This document shows, piece by piece, positions 18,924 through 35,553 of a DNA stretch of 64,000 bases. The notes under the pieces are model-generated. The model was not told the origin of the DNA, ran no database searches, and saw only the letters and a program-made list of their open reading frames with translations. Numbering within the stretch: the first letter of the stretch is position 1; each line of letters opens with the position of its first letter. Source of the stretch: Escherichia phage PECP20; the sequence record OQ873415.1; one strand, written 5' to 3'. The translations under genes were made by a program, and so were the position numbers.

Positions 18924-19103
18924 TCACATAATCTCGTTAACATACATTTGCAATTCGGTGTGGGCGTCGGCCATCTTTTTCATAGCTCTGTTAATGTCGA
19001 TGTCTCCATCTTCGCAACCATGAGCATTTTCCCAATCAGATACCGCATTAGCGTACTCTTCAATCAAAAACATCAACTTAGAAATCTTTTCTTTACGTGT
19101 CAT
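18924..19103 (-). CDS. Hypothetical protein (~59 aa), at the T4 rI.-1 position
   Basis: Internal ATG with GAGGAG ribosome-binding site; lies downstream of rI. Confidence 0.4.
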   Translation of the reverse strand: MTRKEKISKLMFLIEEYANAVSDWENAHGCEDGDIDINRAMKKMADAHTELQMYVNEIM

Positions 19104-19130
19104 AACGTTCTCCTCTAGTAAGTAAGGACT

Positions 19131-19159
19131 ACTATAACACATCTCAAGGAGAAGTAAAC
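19131..19159 (-). promoter_or_regulatory. T4-type early promoter (GTTTAC, 17 nt, TATAGT)
   Basis: Minus strand: GTTTACTTCTCCTTGAGATGTGTTATAGT. Confidence 0.55.
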
Positions 19160-19170
19160 TGTTAAATACC

Positions 19171-19198
19171 AAAAAGCCCCAACCATAAGGAAGGGGCT
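19171..19198 (-). terminator. Intrinsic terminator after rI (AGCCCC stem, then TTTTTGG)
   Basis: Hairpin plus U-run on the minus strand just past the rI stop. Confidence 0.6.
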
Positions 19199-19204
19199 AG
19201 TAAA

Positions 19205-19507
19205 TTAGATAGATGTAGGCTCTAATTTTATTTTCATGAACTCAGCAAATTGTCTGGCAGTTTTTATGCCTTGTTCATGACATTCAAATGCATCATCACA
19301 GGGGCTATTTTTGTAATGCTTTGCCATATACTTATAGAATTTTTCAGAATTCTCGACATTTTGAATTTCAAACAAAGTATATACGTTTTTAATCCCTGAT
19401 TCCATAAAGTTATCAAAATATGGGTCAATATGTGCAGTACCAACGATAGGAGTTGTTGCTGCAAAAAACCCCAGCATCGCCATGACAGCTATCGCTCTTA
19501 AGGCCAT
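19205..19507 (-). CDS. rI: Lysis-inhibition regulator rI (signal-anchored periplasmic protein)
   Basis: MALRAIAVMAMLGFFAATTPIVGTAHIDPYFDNFMESGIKNVY... matches T4 rI in length (100 aa) and sequence as I remember it. Confidence 0.8.
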   Translation of the reverse strand: MALRAIAVMAMLGFFAATTPIVGTAHIDPYFDNFMESGIKNVYTLFEIQNVENSEKFYKYMAKHYKNSPCDDAFECHEQGIKTARQFAEFMKIKLEPTSI

Positions 19508-19519
19508 ATAGGCCTCCTG

Positions 19520-19732
19520 TTAATTTTGGCCAGTATTTATTTTTCGCCTTTGGACGGCCTTAACATCTGTGAGGTATTTTTCCAGCTTGCGCTTGCGTGT
19601 ATAATCAGCTTTAGAACCAGTTTGACGGATATCCTCGTTTAAATGAGAAATAGAATGTCCTAATTCTCTTCGGATTTCATCCAATTGGGTTACAGTAAGA
19701 TTACGAAGTTGTCTTTCGTTTAATTGCTGCAT
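19520..19732 (-). CDS. Hypothetical protein (70 aa), at the T4 rI.1 position
   Basis: ORF track; synteny. Confidence 0.45.
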
Positions 19733-19759
19733 ATATACCTCTTGGTTAGATATTAGTAT

Positions 19760-20341
19760 TTATAACAACCCTGTCAAATCATTCCAATGCTTCCGGCATA
19801 ATGACACATATCTATCGGTATCACCAATTTCAATTTGACTGCCATCTGTAATTGGAAGTCCGTCTTCCGTGACTCTAGCTACCATTGTGGCCTTTTTACC
19901 ACAATGACAGACACCTTTAAGTTCAACAAGCTTATCGGCAATAGCCATTAATGCTTGAGAACCTTCAAATAGATTACCTTTAAAATCTGTTCGTAGTCCA
20001 TATGCCATTACCGGCACATTGTATACGTCAACAATACGACTAAGTTGATACACCTTTTCAGTAGTTAAGAACTGAGCTTCGTCAACAAATACGCAGTGAA
20101 TATCCTTTTGTGCTGCAGCCCATTTATAGAATTCAAAGATATCCATGTCTTTTGTAATTATATTGGCATCCTGACGAATACCAATACGAGAGACTATTTC
20201 ACCTTTTGAATCACGAGTATCAATAGCCGGTTTAAGAACTAATACACCCATGCCACGTTCTTTATAGTTATGTGCGGCAGTAAGTAATGAAGCAGACTTA
20301 CCAGCGTTCATAGCGGCATAGGTAAAAATTAAACTAGCCAT
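19760..20341 (-). CDS. tk: Thymidine kinase
   Basis: 193 aa; P-loop NAGKSASLL; same length as T4 Tk. Confidence 0.9.
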   Translation of the reverse strand: MASLIFTYAAMNAGKSASLLTAAHNYKERGMGVLVLKPAIDTRDSKGEIVSRIGIRQDANIITKDMDIFEFYKWAAAQKDIHCVFVDEAQFLTTEKVYQLSRIVDVYNVPVMAYGLRTDFKGNLFEGSQALMAIADKLVELKGVCHCGKKATMVARVTEDGLPITDGSQIEIGDTDRYVSLCRKHWNDLTGLL

Positions 20342-20350
20342 AAGAGTCCC

Positions 20351-20533
20351 TTATAGTGAATTCACGTAGTCAATGAGTTCTTGTTCTTTCCTGTCAAATG
20401 ATTCCATCAATGCTTGATATTCTTCGTCTGTTAAAGGAGCATATTCATCGTACGCATTAGTGGCTGCTTGCTCATCCAATAGGTCATGGATAAGTTCGAA
20501 CAGTTTAGTTTTCTCTTCTTTAGTCAATTTCAT
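20351..20533 (-). CDS. Hypothetical acidic protein (60 aa), tk.1 position
   Basis: ORF track; synteny. Confidence 0.45.
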   Translation of the reverse strand: MKLTKEEKTKLFELIHDLLDEQAATNAYDEYAPLTDEEYQALMESFDRKEQELIDYVNSL

Positions 20534-20736
20534 TTAGGTTCACCTTCTTTAACGAAATCTGGGTAAGGGTAAAATCCTGAGTAAAACCCTTCACCTTTAT
20601 GATTGCTACAACCTTTGTTCGAACAGTAACACCAATAATCAAAATCACAAGCCATTTCGTCATTGCATAAAGCAAAAACTACAGGCCATTCGCATTTTTC
20701 GCATTTAGCACCTGTAAGAATTTTTGTTTGACTCAT
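20530..20736 (-). CDS. Small Cys-rich protein (~68 aa; CEKC...C...C), tk.2 position
   Basis: ORF track; multiple Cys pairs suggest metal binding. Confidence 0.4.
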   Translation of the reverse strand: MSQTKILTGAKCEKCEWPVVFALCNDEMACDFDYWCYCSNKGCSNHKGEGFYSGFYPYPDFVKEGEPK

Positions 20737-20945
20737 AACCATTTGACCTGCATGCAATATTCTTCGACATGCTTTTTACGACATTTCTTATCAATAAAGG
20801 TATATTCCATAAAGCGTCCATGATAACGACGTTCAACATCGTGAGGGGTGTTAATAGGACACTTAGTCTGGCGAATTTCTTCCCATTCACGAATAATAAC
20901 TGCTTTATTCTTTGGGTCATACGGGTGAGGATAATGCACATTCAT
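20733..20945 (-). CDS. Hypothetical protein (~70 aa), tk.3 position
   Basis: ORF track. Confidence 0.4.
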   Translation of the reverse strand: MNVHYPHPYDPKNKAVIIREWEEIRQTKCPINTPHDVERRYHGRFMEYTFIDKKCRKKHVEEYCMQVKWL

Positions 20946-21409
20946 AACAATGGTTCCCAATCAACAATCACAATTTCTAGTTTAGTGGAATACGTATCTA
21001 AAATCTCTTCGATGACATCCCAGTTTCCACCACCAATACCTGCACCAATTCTTGGCATATAAATTACAGGCTTTGTTATCTTATTTTTTCCGAATTCATT
21101 TAATTCTATTATACAATTCATTAAAGCAGAGTACTCAAAATTAGGTCCCGGCTCAAACTGTGTATAAAGATTAAAGCAATAAGCTTTATGGGTCTTAAAA
21201 TATTTTTCATAAACCGAATAAGTCCCGAGTTTAGACTCGTCTCCGAATTCGGTTTGAAGTTTATCGGCTTCTAAAATTTTTGGATAAGCCTTTGCCAATT
21301 GACCTGCTACACCGGCACCCATTGTATGAAAACAATTGCACCCATGAGCAATATTATTACCTTTAGAAAACAGGGCGACAATATCGCCCTTGATATAGTT
21401 TTTAATCAC
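20942..21409 (-). CDS. Macro-domain-like protein (candidate ADP-ribose binding/processing), 155 aa
   Basis: Gly-rich motifs HGCNCFHTMGAGVAGQLAKAY and GAGIGGGNW resemble macrodomain signatures. Confidence 0.45.
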   Translation of the reverse strand: MIKNYIKGDIVALFSKGNNIAHGCNCFHTMGAGVAGQLAKAYPKILEADKLQTEFGDESKLGTYSVYEKYFKTHKAYCFNLYTQFEPGPNFEYSALMNCIIELNEFGKNKITKPVIYMPRIGAGIGGGNWDVIEEILDTYSTKLEIVIVDWEPLL

Positions 21410-21749
21410 TTGCTACAAGTCCTCTAGTATAAGAGTCAACTAGACGGTCCACCATAGAATTGCATGCTGCCTTATCTTTAGGTTCCGCCACCGAGCATTC
21501 TAATATTTGCCATTTTTTATAGTATCTTTTAATTAAGGTAGACGCCTTGAACCTACTAGACGCCCCATCTTTTTCTCCGTCTTTATACGCATATAACAAT
21601 TTTTGTGAAAAATCTACTTTACACTCTTGACTTTTACCACAATAATCAGACGCCGTTCTGTTTGTATACTCCGTTACATCAGTATATGTAGTATTAGCAA
21701 GAGCGTTAAATGAAACCAAGCCAACTATTAAAGCTAACATTTTGGTCAT
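21402..21749 (-). CDS. Secreted protein with signal peptide (115 aa); position and length match T4 vs
   Basis: MTKMLALIVGLVSFNALA signal peptide; synteny only. Confidence 0.4.
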   Translation of the reverse strand: MTKMLALIVGLVSFNALANTTYTDVTEYTNRTASDYCGKSQECKVDFSQKLLYAYKDGEKDGASSRFKASTLIKRYYKKWQILECSVAEPKDKAACNSMVDRLVDSYTRGLVASD

Positions 21750-22288
21750 TCTTTTATTTCCAGTAGTTTATTTGATTTAAGGTAATTAGCCTTTTCTAGG
21801 ACTTCAGAAGCATATTTACTTCCAGCACTTGTCTTCCACCCCGCATTATATGAGGATATAGCTTTTCTTATATCCCCGTTATGTATATTTAACCAATAAG
21901 AAAATTCGATATAAGCCCATCTGGCCGAATTAGACCGCTTAGATAGCATTTTCTTAATTTGGGCATCAGACATATTATAACCAAGCTGGTTAATTCTTGC
22001 CCTCATTGTTGGTAGATAGTTTTGGAACATTCCATACGCATGGTGACCTTTCTTATCTTTAAGATTAATACCGGCAGATGATTCTTGCCATAGTATTGCG
22101 GCCATTATGTATCCAAGTCCTTTCTTATGCATATTTTCATGCGTTTTAAATTTTCCGTCCTTAGAAAACTGTTCCCCAAACTGATAAGCATAATTCAAGT
22201 TATCGAGTTGGACATTACTAAAAGTATGCTCGGAGCTATGTGCTGATAACGAAAGAGCAAATAGACCAGCGAGTAGTGCTTTTCTCAT
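21746..22288 (-). CDS. Secreted lytic transglycosylase-like protein (SLT domain; ES, GMFQ and SYNAG motifs), 180 aa
   Basis: Signal peptide MRKALLAGLFALSLSA plus motifs WQESSAG / YGMFQ / SYNAGW. Confidence 0.55.
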   Translation of the reverse strand: MRKALLAGLFALSLSAHSSEHTFSNVQLDNLNYAYQFGEQFSKDGKFKTHENMHKKGLGYIMAAILWQESSAGINLKDKKGHHAYGMFQNYLPTMRARINQLGYNMSDAQIKKMLSKRSNSARWAYIEFSYWLNIHNGDIRKAISSYNAGWKTSAGSKYASEVLEKANYLKSNKLLEIKE

Positions 22289-22296
22289 GTTTACCT

Positions 22297-22755
22297 CTAG
22301 ATTTTAATCACTGCTTTAGAAGCTTTTCCTGGTAGTCGTTTACTGTTAATAATAGCCATTCTACATTGAAGAGTCTTCATTTTGAATGTTGGATTTTCGC
22401 GACAGACTGTAAGTCCTAACCAAAGATTTCCATCAGTTATTTCTAAACGGCCTGGGCGATATTCGACACCTTCGACAAAATCTTCATCAACATCTGGACG
22501 TGCCGGCATTGATAAAAATTCTGCAACTTCTTTAACATGATTTTTTACTTTATGAAATAATTCAAAAACGTAATTCTCATCTATTTCTCTCTGGATGGCG
22601 CGATCTAAGAGATGTTGAGAATACTTGATATGAAAGCCTGGTAGTCCAAAAGACTTTGCAGCATCTTTTATACCGGCATTTATTTTGCGGAACTCCGTTT
22701 CAAAGATTCGACGGAGTTTATTACGGCGGATAAAAACTTCCGAATTGATAGTCAT
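22297..22755 (-). CDS. regB: Site-specific RNA endonuclease RegB
   Basis: MTINSEVFIRRNKLRRIFETEFRKIN...HLLDRAIQREIDE...QCRMAIINSKRLPGKASKAVIK is near-identical to T4 RegB as I remember it. Confidence 0.9.
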   Translation of the reverse strand: MTINSEVFIRRNKLRRIFETEFRKINAGIKDAAKSFGLPGFHIKYSQHLLDRAIQREIDENYVFELFHKVKNHVKEVAEFLSMPARPDVDEDFVEGVEYRPGRLEITDGNLWLGLTVCRENPTFKMKTLQCRMAIINSKRLPGKASKAVIKI

Positions 22756-22783
22756 TTTGATTTCTCCTCTAGTTGACAGGTCT

Positions 22784-22812
22784 ATAGTAACACAACTAGA
22801 GGAGAAGTAAAC
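22784..22812 (-). promoter_or_regulatory. T4-type early promoter (GTTTAC, 17 nt, TACTAT) with 11-bp inverted repeat TCCTCTAGTTG/CAACTAGAGGA around the -10
   Basis: Minus-strand read; upstream of regB. Confidence 0.55.
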
Positions 22813-23111
22813 TACTCTTTGAAAGGAATTAACTTTTTAACTGCTTTAGATACTTCGTCACGAACCTGATGGAAGTTCTTGAGCTGTTCAAGGCGTTGTT
22901 CGTAATACGCAATCTCATCTTCTTCAAGACAATCGTCAGCGTCTTCTTTCAGATATGCCTTGTACTCATTAAAGAGGGCCCATAGGCGGTTCTCAAAGTC
23001 ATCAAGGCTTTGAATTTTCTTGTGCTTCGGAACAAGGCCAAAAGGATTGCTTTCAGTTATGCGTCTAGATGCTTCATAATGAGTTCCAAAGCCTGATAGG
23101 ATTTGAGCCAT
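22812..23111 (-). CDS. Hypothetical protein (99 aa), vs.3 position
   Basis: ORF track. Confidence 0.45.
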
Positions 23112-23377
23112 TAGTATTTTTCCTCAGGTCGAAATACTGCACGACAGGCCCACATGCTGGCTTCTTTTAGATGTTGCTTAGCATACTTAAGAGCCTGTAC
23201 TGCATCCATATCTTCTTTGGTTTGTTGCTCTGTTTCATTTTCTTTCAAGATATATGCTTCTTCAATCAGAGCATCAAACAACAATCCAAGACGGACTTCT
23301 GCATCTTTAATAGCGTTCACTTTACCGATTTTATCGTCGGTATGTGGCTTGTAGCCTTTAATATCTTCAATCGACAT
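23111..23377 (-). CDS. Small protein at the T4 vs.4 position; candidate Acb2-like cyclic-oligonucleotide sponge
   Basis: Synteny (regB - vs.3 - this gene) and size (~88 aa); start at internal ATG with GAGGAA ribosome-binding site; identity not confirmed. Confidence 0.4.
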
Positions 23378-23591
23378 AAGGAATTTCCTCATCGGTGGCA
23401 AGGTCATATTCGACCAATTGGATAGGCTCATTAATACCATATCCACGTACAGTGATATCAGTTGCCGGATAGTTTCCAGTAATATCACCCATTCTAAATG
23501 CTTCAATGAATGATTGCTCGCCTGAGCAACTAAACCAGGCGGCAAAACATTTTAAAACATCTTCAGACCCTTCTATAATCAATTTAGCCAT
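23367..23591 (-). CDS. Hypothetical protein (74 aa)
   Basis: ORF track. Confidence 0.45.
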   Translation of the reverse strand: MAKLIIEGSEDVLKCFAAWFSCSGEQSFIEAFRMGDITGNYPATDITVRGYGINEPIQLVEYDLATDEEIPYVD

Positions 23592-23953
23592 TATAGACTC
23601 TCAGTAAAGGTACGAGCGATAACGTCACGCTGCTGTTCCGGAGTCAGAGAGTTAAAGCGAACTGCATAACCGGATACACGGATGGTCAGCTGCGGATATT
23701 TTTCCGGATGCTTAACTGCATCTTCCAGAGTTTCACGACGCAGAACATTAACGTTCAGGTGTTGACCACCTTCAATTTTAACTTTAGGTTGATGTTCAAT
23801 TTCAATTTCGCGGGCATGTAAACCGTAGAAAATTTCCGGGTCTACAATAGCGTCTTCTTTAAAAGTCTTAGAGACAATAATCCGGGCTTGAGTACCGTCT
23901 TCAAAATAAATAGTGCCTTTGTGTGTGCCTTCAAGAATTTGATATGCTTTCAT
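23591..23953 (-). CDS. Autonomous glycyl radical cofactor (GrcA/YfiD-like)
   Basis: C-terminal half ...[60 protein letters not shown] carries the glycyl-radical signature RVSGY and matches E. coli GrcA as I remember it. Confidence 0.8.
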
Positions 23954-23959
23954 ATAACC

Positions 23960-24268
23960 TCAATTAGAAAATAAATTTATCCAAGTTTTTTCTTTAATCA
24001 AAAATGGGTCGGAATTAAACGCCATTAAACTTTGAGTGATTAATCCCTTAAATGGCCCATCAATAAATTCCATTTTGAAATGCGGAATACTAGTCATCAA
24101 CCGTGCATTAGGAGCAGTACAAAGAACCTGCTGCCCTGCGAACGGACCTTTAGTCAAACGGTATCGTTTAGGTTTAAAATGGTAAATCTCGTAATTTTCT
24201 ACAAGAGCCCTTTTATTGCATACTGGGCTGTTATAACAATACTCAAAAACTTCAATAGTGGTCATCAT
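23960..24268 (-). CDS. Hypothetical protein (102 aa)
   Basis: ORF track. Confidence 0.45.
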   Translation of the reverse strand: MMTTIEVFEYCYNSPVCNKRALVENYEIYHFKPKRYRLTKGPFAGQQVLCTAPNARLMTSIPHFKMEFIDGPFKGLITQSLMAFNSDPFLIKEKTWINLFSN

Positions 24269-24804
24269 TGCATTCCAATCACAAAAAATTGAGGACGAGC
24301 ATTACCGCCGATGCAATATTTGCTTTTGCAACAGTGTTGGACTGTTTTAATATGTACATTGTAAATCTTATCCATATCAGGAGCTTTAATAGGCTCGTCA
24401 ATTATATACAGAATACGAGAAAGCGTTAATCCACGGAATTTAGAACCTTCATTGCCAATAAAACTACGAACAGAATCAGTAAATAAACGGAATCGAATAT
24501 CGTCGCTAGAATAACGAGAAAATTCTTTTTTAATGTTGCCAGCAGAAATTTTAGAATAAGCTGAAGTATTAGAAAGAACAATAACTGTTCCACCATCATA
24601 CAGCCAATTAACAGCAAAATTAGTTACTGCGGTCGATTTACCTGATTGTCGGCCGCCGTCTAAACGAAGTGTACAGTACTGCTTGAGTACGTCTTCAAAC
24701 GGTGGGATATAACCGTTCTTACAAATTTCTTCTACTCTAGCATCAGAATGGTGTGTAAAAGCATTCATCAGGGATAGATAAGGTCCAGTTAAAAATGTTC
24801 TCAT
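24265..24804 (-). CDS. Hypothetical P-loop protein (Walker A GGRQSGKST), 179 aa
   Basis: Walker A motif in the translation. Confidence 0.5.
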   Translation of the reverse strand: MRTFLTGPYLSLMNAFTHHSDARVEEICKNGYIPPFEDVLKQYCTLRLDGGRQSGKSTAVTNFAVNWLYDGGTVIVLSNTSAYSKISAGNIKKEFSRYSSDDIRFRLFTDSVRSFIGNEGSKFRGLTLSRILYIIDEPIKAPDMDKIYNVHIKTVQHCCKSKYCIGGNARPQFFVIGMQ

Positions 24805-35396: not shown

Positions 35397-35473
35397 TGGT
35401 CGAGACAGAAGGATTCTAACCTTCAACCTACGGATTAGAAGTCCGTTGCTCCATACAATTGAGCTATGCCTCG
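35397..35473 (-). tRNA. tRNA-Arg (anticodon TCT), CCA encoded
   Basis: Hand fold: acceptor CGAGGCA/TGTCTCG, D-arm GCTC...GAGC, anticodon stem ACGGA/TCCGT with loop CTTCTAA, T-stem GAAGG/CCTTC, discriminator A plus CCA. Confidence 0.75.
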
Positions 35474-35479
35474 AATATA

Positions 35480-35553
35480 TGGCCCAGACCAGATTCGAAC
35501 TGGTAACCTTTCCCTTATGAGGGGACTGCTGCTAACCATTGAGCTACAGGGCC
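35480..35553 (-). tRNA. tRNA with anticodon CAT (Met, or Ile if lysidine-modified)
   Basis: Hand fold: acceptor GGCCCTG/CTGGGCC (one U-U mismatch), anticodon loop CTCATAA, T-arm ACCAG-TTCGAAT-CTGGT; no encoded CCA. Confidence 0.7.

Follow-up and report, generated by a model that had tools for sequence, protein, structure and literature searches.

Three adjacent genes at positions 20942-22288 of Escherichia phage PECP20 (OQ873415.1) raise the question of which activities are encoded between tk.3 and regB in a T4-like phage. The stretch of DNA that was analysed, referred to here as the window, comprised 64,000 nucleotides. The initial annotation had placed a macrodomain-like protein, a signal-peptide protein and a secreted protein resembling SLT lytic transglycosylases at this locus. 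Taken together, it is probable that the three genes encode an AdfM-type macrodomain protein (Tk.4), an exported GH23 protein (Vs.1) and an exported Vs. As the macrodomain assignment of Tk.4 and the SLT assignment of Vs.1 were both published by 2006, nothing at the locus is new in this respect.

Identity and organization of the block

The region is the conserved vs.1 - vs - tk.4 block of a Mosigvirus-type T4-like coliphage. It consists of three consecutive, overlapping ORFs on the minus strand, which span exactly positions 20942-22288. The vs.1 orthologue (21746..22288) encodes an SLT/GH23-like, predicted secreted protein of 180 amino acids, and its Shine-Dalgarno sequence GAGG at 22297-22294 overlaps the stop codon of regB. 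The vs orthologue (21402..21749) encodes a precursor of 115 amino acids; its ATG overlaps the stop codon of vs.1 (ATGA), and its last 8 nucleotides overlap the start of tk.4. The tk.4 (adfM) orthologue (20942..21409, 155 amino acids) begins with a GTG codon at 21409-21407 and ends with TGA at 20944-20942, and this stop codon shares bases with the ATG of tk.3. The overlapping stop and start codons suggest coupled translation of vs.1, vs and tk.4, and the three genes, which lie downstream of regB, would be transcribed from the minus strand. As a promoter scan gave 17 sites compared with 18.2 in shuffled sequence, and thus no excess, no claim is made about a transcription start. No RNA families were found by Rfam in positions 19000-24500.

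The DNA of the block was 100% identical to that of phage CAU_ECP01 and 97.9% identical to that of Mosigvirus phages, and it matched 656 phage records in total. Matches to Vs and Vs.1 were found in 795 and 2058 records, respectively. Because of these many matches, the three ORFs were regarded as real genes and not as chance ORFs. The gene order tk, tk.1-tk.4, vs, vs.1, regB is that of T4, and the initial annotation had correctly assigned the first protein to the tk.4 position (tk.3 - tk.4 - vs). Identity to the T4 orthologues was 85% for Tk.4, 67% for Vs and 83% for Vs.1. In T4, all three genes are dispensable in rich medium.

Tk.4 as a macrodomain protein

Tk.4 matched the Pfam Macro model (PF01661) with 28.3 bits at a cutoff of 22, and residues 22-136 were aligned to positions 2-117 of the 118 positions of the model. 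The glycine-rich motifs on which the macrodomain call had been based were present as MGAGVAG (residues 30-36) and RIGAGIGGG (residues 120-128). Among sequences of solved structures, Tk.4 matched the macrodomains BT1257, Poa1p, SCO6735, DarG (5m31, 5m3i) and TARG1, the best match being BT1257 (E 6.5e-11), with SCO6735 at E 7.3e-5. Profile searches, one of the checks proposed for this annotation, supported the Macro assignment and, through its relatives, the SLT assignment of Vs.1 discussed below. The sole match of Tk.4 in NCBIfam was DarG, and the same was true of PADLOC. The full-length DarG model NF048014 was matched with only 31.9 bits (cutoff 250), over model positions 4-146 of 338. By both sequence and profile, the closest relatives of Tk.4 belong to the ALC1-like class (TARG1/DarG/SCO6735). 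Comparison of the Tk.4 family with TARG1 by hhalign gave a probability of 98.5% and an E-value of 2.8e-15; the TARG1 sequence used was confirmed against 2LGR. The family comprised 5318 representative clusters at E<=0.001, and Tk.4 matched phrog_335 with E 4.7e-67.

The putative active site was examined in 56 family members. Asn25 (codon 21335..21337, minus strand), the conserved macrodomain asparagine, was invariant in all of them and is the equivalent of DarG N22 and SCO6735 N27; the HGCNC motif that contains it aligned with the HCISE segment of TARG1. At the position of the catalytic lysine, Tk.4 has Gln84 (codon 21158..21160, minus strand), and the motif Y82-T83-Q84 did not vary in the 56 sequences. 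In the hhalign comparison Q84 was paired with TARG1 K84 and G125 with TARG1 D125, so that Q84 corresponds to DarG K80 and SCO6735 Gln85. Tk.4 was initially assumed to have the catalytic lysine seen in DarG and TARG1, but this profile alignment ruled it out. Hence, the Asn + Lys pair of the DarG type is absent: N25 is present, and the lysine position is occupied by an invariant glutamine. The SCO6735-type active site, with a glutamine at the lysine position held by an asparagine, is present in Tk.4 as N25 and Q84. Since residues Q84-Y93 aligned without gaps with TARG1 K84-Y93, Tk.4 lacks the five-residue-longer mobile loop of the SCO6735 subclass. The pairwise phmmer alignment of Tk.4 with BT1257 mis-registered the catalytic-lysine segment.

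SCO6735 confers protection against DarT and strips ADP-ribose off thymidine in DNA that DarT has modified; its residues Gln85 and Asn27 are both needed for hydrolysis of thymidine-ADP-ribose. In T4, tk.4 was the only gene identified by transposon screening on a host carrying DarTG2, and a clean tk.4 (adfM) knockout was sensitised to DarTG2 (bioRxiv 10.1101/2025.11.20.689424, a 2025 preprint containing genetics only). As the T4 gene is needed to resist DarTG2, Tk.4 likely removes ADP-ribose from thymidine in DNA. The ADP-ribose metabolism originally suggested for this protein was thus the right field and too general a description, as the T4 orthologue has a specific anti-DarTG2 role. Based on this analysis, Tk.4 is most likely a cytoplasmic, stand-alone ALC1-like macrodomain that would remove the ADP-ribose added by DarT2 to thymidines in single-stranded DNA. 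The host toxin DarT2 ADP-ribosylates thymidines of single-stranded phage DNA, and removal of these groups by Tk.4 would restore phage replication. With Asn25 and Gln84 paired as in SCO6735, the glutamine would position the distal ribose, and water would do the chemistry. This chemistry is extrapolated from SCO6735, matched at the above E-value of 7.3e-5, because Tk.4 has neither the lysine of DarG and TARG1 nor the aspartate of TARG1 nor the long loop, and the T4 phenotype would presumably carry over to PECP20.

T4 and many other phage annotations describe Tk.4 as 'phosphatase / A1pp motif', and phrog_335 likewise carries the name 'phosphatase'. Tk.4 would then dephosphorylate ADP-ribose-1''-phosphate, or process ADP-ribose or O-acetyl-ADP-ribose more generally, and would act on small metabolites and not on DNA. 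Matches to yeast Poa1p, which is an ADP-ribose 1''-phosphate phosphatase (E 1e-8), and to OARD1, an O-acetyl-ADP-ribose deacetylase (E 1e-3), are consistent with this. However, the similarity to Poa1p was strong only over residues 4-95, and the best structural relatives were BT1257 and SCO6735, the latter being a thymidine de-ADP-ribosylase in which the Asn/Gln pair is also found. Moreover, the phenotype of T4 tk.4 is specific to DarTG2 (bioRxiv 10.1101/2025.11.20.689424). Activity on small metabolites is therefore considered improbable.

It would also be surprising if Tk.4 served chiefly to reverse or tune the ADP-ribosylation of host proteins or RNA by the phage's own enzymes Alt, ModA and ModB, with protection against DarT2 being incidental. 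ADP-ribosyltransferases are encoded by T4-like phages according to the T4 gene table, and ADP-ribose attached to proteins is a further substrate of SCO6735 and TARG1. Yet insertions in T4 tk.4 carried no fitness cost in the absence of DarTG2 (45 of 46 sites hit, log2FC of -0.07 in LB versus M9), and no link to Alt or Mod was found. The action on DarT2-modified DNA remains the preferred reading, and the annotation 'phosphatase' would be better replaced by 'anti-DarT2 macrodomain (AdfM-type, Asn/Gln active site)'.

The predicted exported proteins Vs.1 and Vs

Signal peptides were called for Vs and Vs.1 by a heuristic composition scan with internal controls and by family alignments. In Vs, residues 1-18 (MTKMLALIVGLVSFNALA; 21696..21749, minus strand) are a predicted Sec signal peptide that would be cut before N19. 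It consists of a basic start (MTK), a hydrophobic core (MLALIVGLVSF) and NALA, which provides a single small-x-small site (ALA before N). Cleavage of the 12.9-kDa precursor would yield a mature protein of 97 amino acids and 11.0 kDa. Of 37 relatives, nearly all have retained the hydrophobic N-terminus, although sequence identity among them was low. In Vs.1, composition and conservation likewise predict a Sec signal peptide in residues 1-18 (MRKALLAGLFALSLSAHS; 22235..22288, minus strand). A basic start (MRK) is followed by the hydrophobic core ALLAGLFALSLSA and by HS before a further serine, with a net charge of +2 and several small-x-small sites; the cleavage position is uncertain and could be after residue 15, 16 or 18. 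The signal-peptide character was conserved across 31 relatives. The maximum Kyte-Doolittle value over 9 residues was 3.07 for Vs and 2.56 for Vs.1, while the cytoplasmic neighbours Tk.4 and RegB gave 1.53 and 1.04, and the signal peptide of the T4-type RI encoded in the window gave 2.48. Composition and family-wide conservation therefore agree with the signal peptides that had been predicted for the second and third proteins. A signal-arrest-release (SAR) anchor was considered for Vs.1 and provisionally dropped, because the hydrophobic core has only about 13 residues and is followed by small-x-small sites.

Family-1 lytic transglycosylases are recognized by a catalytic glutamate in an E-S motif, a GLMQ-like motif and an AYNxG-like motif. 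The corresponding motifs of Vs.1 are QESS (E69-S70), GMFQ (residues 86-89) and SYNAG (residues 146-150), and E69, S71, G86, Q89, N90, Y147, N148 and G150 were invariant in 31 sequences. Glu69 (codon 22082..22084, minus strand), conserved in these sequences, is the predicted acid/base of the E-S motif. Vs.1 itself scored 18.3 bits with Pfam SLT (PF01464; E 0.0017), just under the cutoff of 21.3, but 30 of the 31 relatives matched SLT at E<0.01, the best with E 1.3e-7, and the precomputed label PF01464 is attached to several of them. Vs.1 matched phrog_600 with E 4.6e-67; no match was obtained in NCBIfam or PADLOC. Nothing meaningful was found among PDB sequences, either with the single sequence or with the profile of 31 sequences. 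The AlphaFold model had a pLDDT of 89.1 (about 60 for residues 1-20) and a pTM of 0.82 and showed a lysozyme-like alpha-helical fold. The 21 best fold matches of this model in the PDB were all GH23 enzymes (probability 0.92-1.0, TM 0.38-0.52, E 0.015-0.3); overall, the Foldseek E-values were weak (0.015 to 0.7). They included a Ralstonia GH23 chitinase, MltD, g-type lysozyme and Slt; Slt70 appeared lower in the list. The SLT resemblance of T4 vs.1 and its orthologues had already been reported, and the SLT domain assigned by the initial annotation is borne out by the motifs, the relatives and the fold matches, with the Pfam score of Vs.1 itself lying below the cutoff.

According to sequence and model, Vs.1 is most likely a small single-domain family-1 (GH23) lytic transglycosylase that would be exported by the Sec pathway, lose its signal peptide and reside in the periplasm. 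The predicted reaction is cleavage of the MurNAc-GlcNAc linkage in peptidoglycan with Glu69 as acid/base, after which the cut strand would terminate in 1,6-anhydroMurNAc. Alternatively, Vs.1 could be a GH23 enzyme that acts by hydrolysis, like a muramidase or chitinase, or it could bind peptidoglycan without catalysis. The score under the SLT cutoff, the presence of the GH23 chitinase and g-type lysozyme among the best fold matches, all with weak E-values, and the label 'C-type lysozyme' on an orthologue in one phage record would agree with this. On the other hand, the ES, GxxQ and YNxG motifs are invariant in the family, and nearly all relatives match SLT. A hydrolase of the g-type lysozyme kind is expected to carry a second acidic catalytic residue, and such a residue was not identified among the invariant columns. 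We consider it unlikely that Vs.1 is something other than a lytic transglycosylase. In annotations, 'hypothetical protein' for the gene upstream of vs could be replaced by 'secreted SLT/GH23-like lytic transglycosylase'.

The protein encoded between vs.1 and tk.4 had been described as a signal-peptide protein only; this was appropriate, but its identity as the classical vs product, the 'valyl-tRNA synthetase modifier', had been missed. Residues 1-112 of Vs matched phrog_1256 'valyl tRNA synthetase modifier' with E 6.5e-35, and all 41 Vs homologues carry a precomputed PF26829 label. No match was obtained in the Pfam copy that was scanned, nor in NCBIfam or PADLOC. The label 'Valyl-tRNA synthetase' given to Vs in several phage records is wrong. 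Four cysteines were invariant in the family alignment of 37 sequences. The AlphaFold model (pLDDT 87.7) is a four-helix bundle, in which residues 1-20 have low confidence and the first helix starts at residue 20. Comparison of the Vs profile with the sequences of solved structures gave nothing meaningful; the best PDB fold match of the model was a helical protein of an archaeal virus with E 1.1, and among viral predicted structures only Vs orthologues and insignificant 'lipoprotein' matches were found. The idea that Vs is a recognisable type of lysozyme inhibitor was dropped, because it has no resemblance to Spackle or known lysozyme inhibitors. In Acinetobacter phage AbTZA1, vs.1 is followed by a gene for a distant Vs homologue, in which the signal peptide and the arrangement of cysteines are the same. 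No Vs-like ORF was present beside the distant Vs.1 homologues of one Ackermannviridae phage and one Felixounavirus phage.

Vs is most likely an exported four-helix bundle of 97 residues, as sequence and model suggest, and may be stapled by two disulfides, C37-C43 and C85-C96. Vs looks exported, yet its annotation gives it a target in the cytoplasm, and this conflict is the one puzzle of the locus. In T4, vs was the most depleted gene on M9 glucose, and T4 without vs shows a growth defect on minimal medium. Full-length T4 Vs with an N-terminal His tag was insoluble. Vs could be tau, a cytoplasmic factor binding to valyl-tRNA synthetase, with a hydrophobic N-terminus that does not function in export or allows only partial export. 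The long-standing annotation to this effect is based on the classical T4 biochemistry of Muller and Marchin (1975, 1977), from which alone the binding and modification of host valyl-tRNA synthetase are known. The nutrient-dependent phenotype of the T4 vs knockout would also suit a role related to translation. Nevertheless, the signal-peptide character persists in nearly all 37 relatives while the sequence varies, the four cysteines are invariant, and the folded domain begins at residue 20. The purified tau factor is said to have a mass of about 10 kDa; if this is right, the mature protein of 11.0 kDa comes nearer to it than the precursor of 12.9 kDa. This cytoplasmic reading is considered less likely than export.

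We tentatively suggest, as a possibility of limited likelihood, that modification of valyl-tRNA synthetase in the cytoplasm is not the function of Vs, or is just one of its functions, and that Vs is a Sec-exported, disulfide-stapled four-helix protein of the periplasm working with Vs.1, e.g. as a regulator or partner. In this case, vs and vs.1 would together constitute an envelope module whose importance would be greatest during host growth on poor medium, and the classical binding of Vs to valyl-tRNA synthetase would be secondary or an artefact of the mixing of compartments in extracts.

Comparison with T4 and other known systems

The T4 orthologues are the closest well-known counterparts. 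T4 Tk.4 (AdfM, anti-DarT factor) has the same position between tk.3 and vs, and all 155 residues of both proteins can be aligned without gaps at 85% identity, with the HGCNC, YTQ and GAGIG motifs common to both. The 24 substitutions include K126 in T4 versus G126 in PECP20. In T4, tk.4 overlaps vs by 4 nucleotides, while the PECP20 gene has a GTG start and an overlap of 8 nucleotides. The anti-DarTG2 phenotype is known from T4 only. T4 Vs ('tau') agrees with the protein described here in length, position, signal-peptide-like N-terminus, four cysteines and the C-terminal motif SMVDRLVDSYxRGL at 67% identity, and no structural difference was seen. From the features of the family, a periplasmic protein with disulfide bonds is predicted; the annotation of T4 Vs, in contrast, names a cytoplasmic partner.

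Vs.1 shares the ES, GxxQ and YNxG motifs and a lysozyme-like fold with the family-1 lytic transglycosylases of GH23, such as Slt70, Pseudomonas Slt and MltD. It differs from these enzymes in being a small single-domain protein of about 162 amino acids in the predicted mature form, with TM scores of about 0.5 and no solved relative at the sequence level. Neither the T4 endolysin e nor the tail lysozyme gp5 is related to Vs.1 in role, and vs.1 is non-essential in T4.

Tk.4 resembles SCO6735 of Streptomyces coelicolor and BT1257, which are ALC1-like macrodomains with a glutamine in place of the catalytic lysine and have the same pair of asparagine and glutamine. In contrast to Tk.4, the SCO6735 subclass has the five-residue-longer mobile loop with DNA-binding lysines, and SCO6735 is bacterial while Tk.4 is borne by a phage. 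Tk.4 also shares the macrodomain fold with DarG and with the AdfM of chimalliviruses (PhiKZ gp104), and its asparagine is equivalent to N22 of DarG. DarG has in addition a C-terminal DarT-binding domain, which is absent from Tk.4. The name AdfM was given independently to two different proteins, T4 Tk.4 and PhiKZ gp104. Both follow the same logic, in which a phage carries an orphan enzyme resembling an antitoxin. Thermus aquaticus DarG (N22/K80) and PhiKZ AdfM (N23/K78) combine asparagine with lysine, whereas Tk.4 has a glutamine at the lysine site. The T4-type AdfM thus represents a glutamine-type branch of the TARG1/DarG class and the chimallivirus AdfM a lysine-type one, which suggests that phages have recruited two chemically different macrodomains against one toxin.

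Arrangement and conservation of the genes

Positions 20942-22288 of the window were filled exactly by three ORFs on the minus strand, namely the orthologues of T4 vs.1 (180 aa; 21746-22288), vs (115 aa; 21402-21749) and tk.4 (155 aa, with a GTG start; 20942-21409). The GAGG ribosome-binding site of vs.1 enclosed the stop codon of regB, the vs.1 stop overlapped the ATG of vs (ATGA), the final 8 nt of vs overlapped the GTG start of tk.4, and the tk.4 stop overlapped the ATG of tk.3, again as ATGA. Because every junction from regB to tk.3 (20942-22299) overlapped or abutted, translational coupling along this block is suggested.

The DNA of positions 20500-22800 matched 656 phage records; it was 100% identical in Escherichia phage CAU_ECP01 and 97.9% identical in Mosigvirus phages such as phiC120. 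The order tk, tk.1-tk.4, vs, vs.1, regB is the same in T4, and identities to the T4 proteins were 85% (Tk.4), 67% (Vs) and 83% (Vs.1). The ORFs, the DNA matches, the T4 gene order and the protein identities confirmed the initial annotation, which had described a macrodomain-like protein, a signal-peptide protein and a secreted SLT-domain protein; its interpretation also held. The three genes are real and widely conserved. Neither they nor their domain assignments are new, the resemblance of T4 vs.1 to SLT and of tk.4 to A1pp having been reported in 2006 with reference to earlier work, and the function of the macrodomain has now been named in T4. Two matters remain of note: the active site of T4-type AdfM (anti-DarT factor, macrodomain), which is of the glutamine type, and the location and role of Vs.

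The minus strand at 21372-21390 carried a G+C-rich hairpin of 8 bp, AGGGCGAUAUUGUCGCCCU, with GUUUUCU after it; it lies just past the GTG start of tk.4, 17 nt inside the coding sequence. Its fold z-score was -2.47. The hairpin was unchanged in T4 and almost unchanged in IME08, and Klebsiella phage F48 had lost it. It could act in translation or RNA stability, or could simply follow from conservation of the KGDIVAL codons.

In the GenBank record that matches the window, PQ572755, several products appear to be misnamed. Vs is named 'valyl-tRNA synthetase', vs.6 'pyruvate formate-lyase', vs.3 and pieces of vs.8 'endoribonuclease', and a run of nrdC.x genes 'thioredoxin'. Two overlapping CDSs are annotated in this record at the place of vs.8; the window has one intact ORF of 179 aa there (24265-24804, minus strand), in which residues 1-40 of T4 Vs.8 are missing. 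The tRNA cluster (35397-35553, minus strand) consisted of only two genes, Arg (TCT) and Met (CAT), whereas the T4 gene table contains at least eight.

Vs.1 and Vs, two predicted exported proteins

Vs.1 alone scored 18.3 bits against Pfam SLT (E 0.0017), just under the cutoff of 21.3, and had no sequence-level relative among solved structures. Its family is large (128 clusters; 2058 phage records) and reaches past the T4-like phages into Ackermannviridae and Felixounavirus; SLT was matched at E<0.01 by 30 of 31 diverse members. The motifs ES, GxxQ and YNxG are the signature of family-1 lytic transglycosylases, and the residues invariant in all 31 members (E69, S71, G86, Q89, N90, Y147, N148 and G150) correspond to them. 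The AlphaFold model was confident (pLDDT 89.1), and its 21 best fold matches in the PDB were without exception GH23 enzymes, namely the Ralstonia GH23 chitinase, MltD, a g-type lysozyme and Pseudomonas Slt, with Slt70 lower in the list. These matches had probabilities near 1, but weak E-values and TM scores of about 0.5. The SLT-like character of the third protein was supported.

The signal-peptide protein is the product of vs (phrog_1256, E 6.5e-35). Its N-terminal sequence varied among 37 relatives, nearly all of which had a basic-then-hydrophobic segment and a small-x-small site, while C37, C43, C85, C96 and a C-terminal SMVDRLVDSYxRGL motif were conserved. In Vs.1, residues 1-18 resembled a Sec signal peptide in composition, a character likewise kept across the family, and the signal peptides proposed for both proteins are therefore supported. 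The Vs model (pLDDT 87.7) was a four-helix bundle beginning at residue 20, with the cysteine pairs placed at the two helix-hairpin turns; searches of the PDB and of viral models gave nothing that resembled it apart from its own orthologues. As a Sec-type signal peptide, four invariant cysteines and a folded domain from residue 20 occur together, Vs is predicted to be a periplasmic, disulfide-bonded protein with a mature form of 97 residues (11.0 kDa). Vs is annotated as a factor binding the cytoplasmic valyl-tRNA synthetase, and its apparently periplasmic character conflicts with this target.

In Acinetobacter phage AbTZA1 (Twarogvirinae; 1438-2707), where regB and tk.4 were absent at this place, the gene directly after vs.1 encoded a distant homologue of Vs (hhalign E 3.6e-5), in which a signal peptide was present and all four cysteines aligned. 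No Vs-like neighbour was present beside the Vs.1 homologues of one Ackermannviridae phage and one Felixounavirus phage. In T4 transposon data from LB, insertion reads in vs and vs.1 stood at about one tenth of the level in the flanking genes (Data S8, bioRxiv 10.1101/2025.11.20.689424). On M9 glucose both dropped further, vs with a log2FC of -2.19 (adjusted p 0) and vs.1 with a log2FC of -0.87 (p 0.0055, adjusted p 0.155), and tk.4 was unaffected (same preprint); all three genes are classed as non-essential. Either vs and vs.1 share a phenotype or their signal is polar; insertions in vs.1 that are polar on vs could account for part of it. We rate a periplasmic partnership of Vs and Vs.1 as possible, though less likely than not. 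The 141-aa ORF after the vs homologue of AbTZA1 also begins with a signal-peptide-like segment.

Tk.4 and its active site

Tk.4 scored 28.3 bits against Pfam Macro (cutoff 22). Its best match among solved structures in a sequence search was BT1257 (E 6.5e-11); others were yeast Poa1p, SCO6735, the DarG macrodomains of Thermus and Mycobacterium, and human TARG1. The sole match in NCBIfam and PADLOC was DarG, covering the macrodomain part of the model only. These matches bore out the proposed macrodomain. When 1.84 billion representatives were scanned in full with HMMER, 5318 family clusters were obtained at E<=0.001; most of these are stand-alone proteins some 150 residues long. Invariant in a 56-member alignment were G23, N25, C26, G33, D49, Y82, T83, Q84, G122 and G124.

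Profile-profile alignment with human TARG1 (sequence identical to PDB 2LGR) had a probability of 98.5% and paired Tk.4 Q84 with the catalytic K84 of TARG1, and G125 with D125; the loop after Q84 aligned without gaps. Tk.4 therefore lacks the catalytic lysine that TARG1 and DarG use and has Gln84 in its place.

In a 2025 preprint, a transposon screen of T4 on a host expressing DarTG2 gave tk.4 as its only hit; a clean knockout confirmed this, and the gene was named adfM (bioRxiv 10.1101/2025.11.20.689424). The resistance of T4 to DarTG1 comes from another protein, AdfN. Tk.4 of the window is an AdfM orthologue, and we infer that its most likely activity is hydrolysis of ADP-ribosyl-thymidine, with a mechanism of the glutamine type.

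The name AdfM was given independently to a different phage macrodomain, PhiKZ gp104 of the chimalliviruses, for which DNA de-ADP-ribosylation was shown in vitro, and the shared name could confuse annotation. The chimallivirus AdfM is of the Asn/Lys type, whereas T4 Tk.4 is of the Asn/Gln type according to our alignment. The closest described mechanism is that of SCO6735, which takes ADP-ribose off thymidine in DarT-modified DNA; here the lysine is replaced by Gln85, which is held in place by Asn27, and both residues are required. SCO6735 and BT1257 have a longer mobile loop, in contrast to Tk.4, which lacks such a loop.
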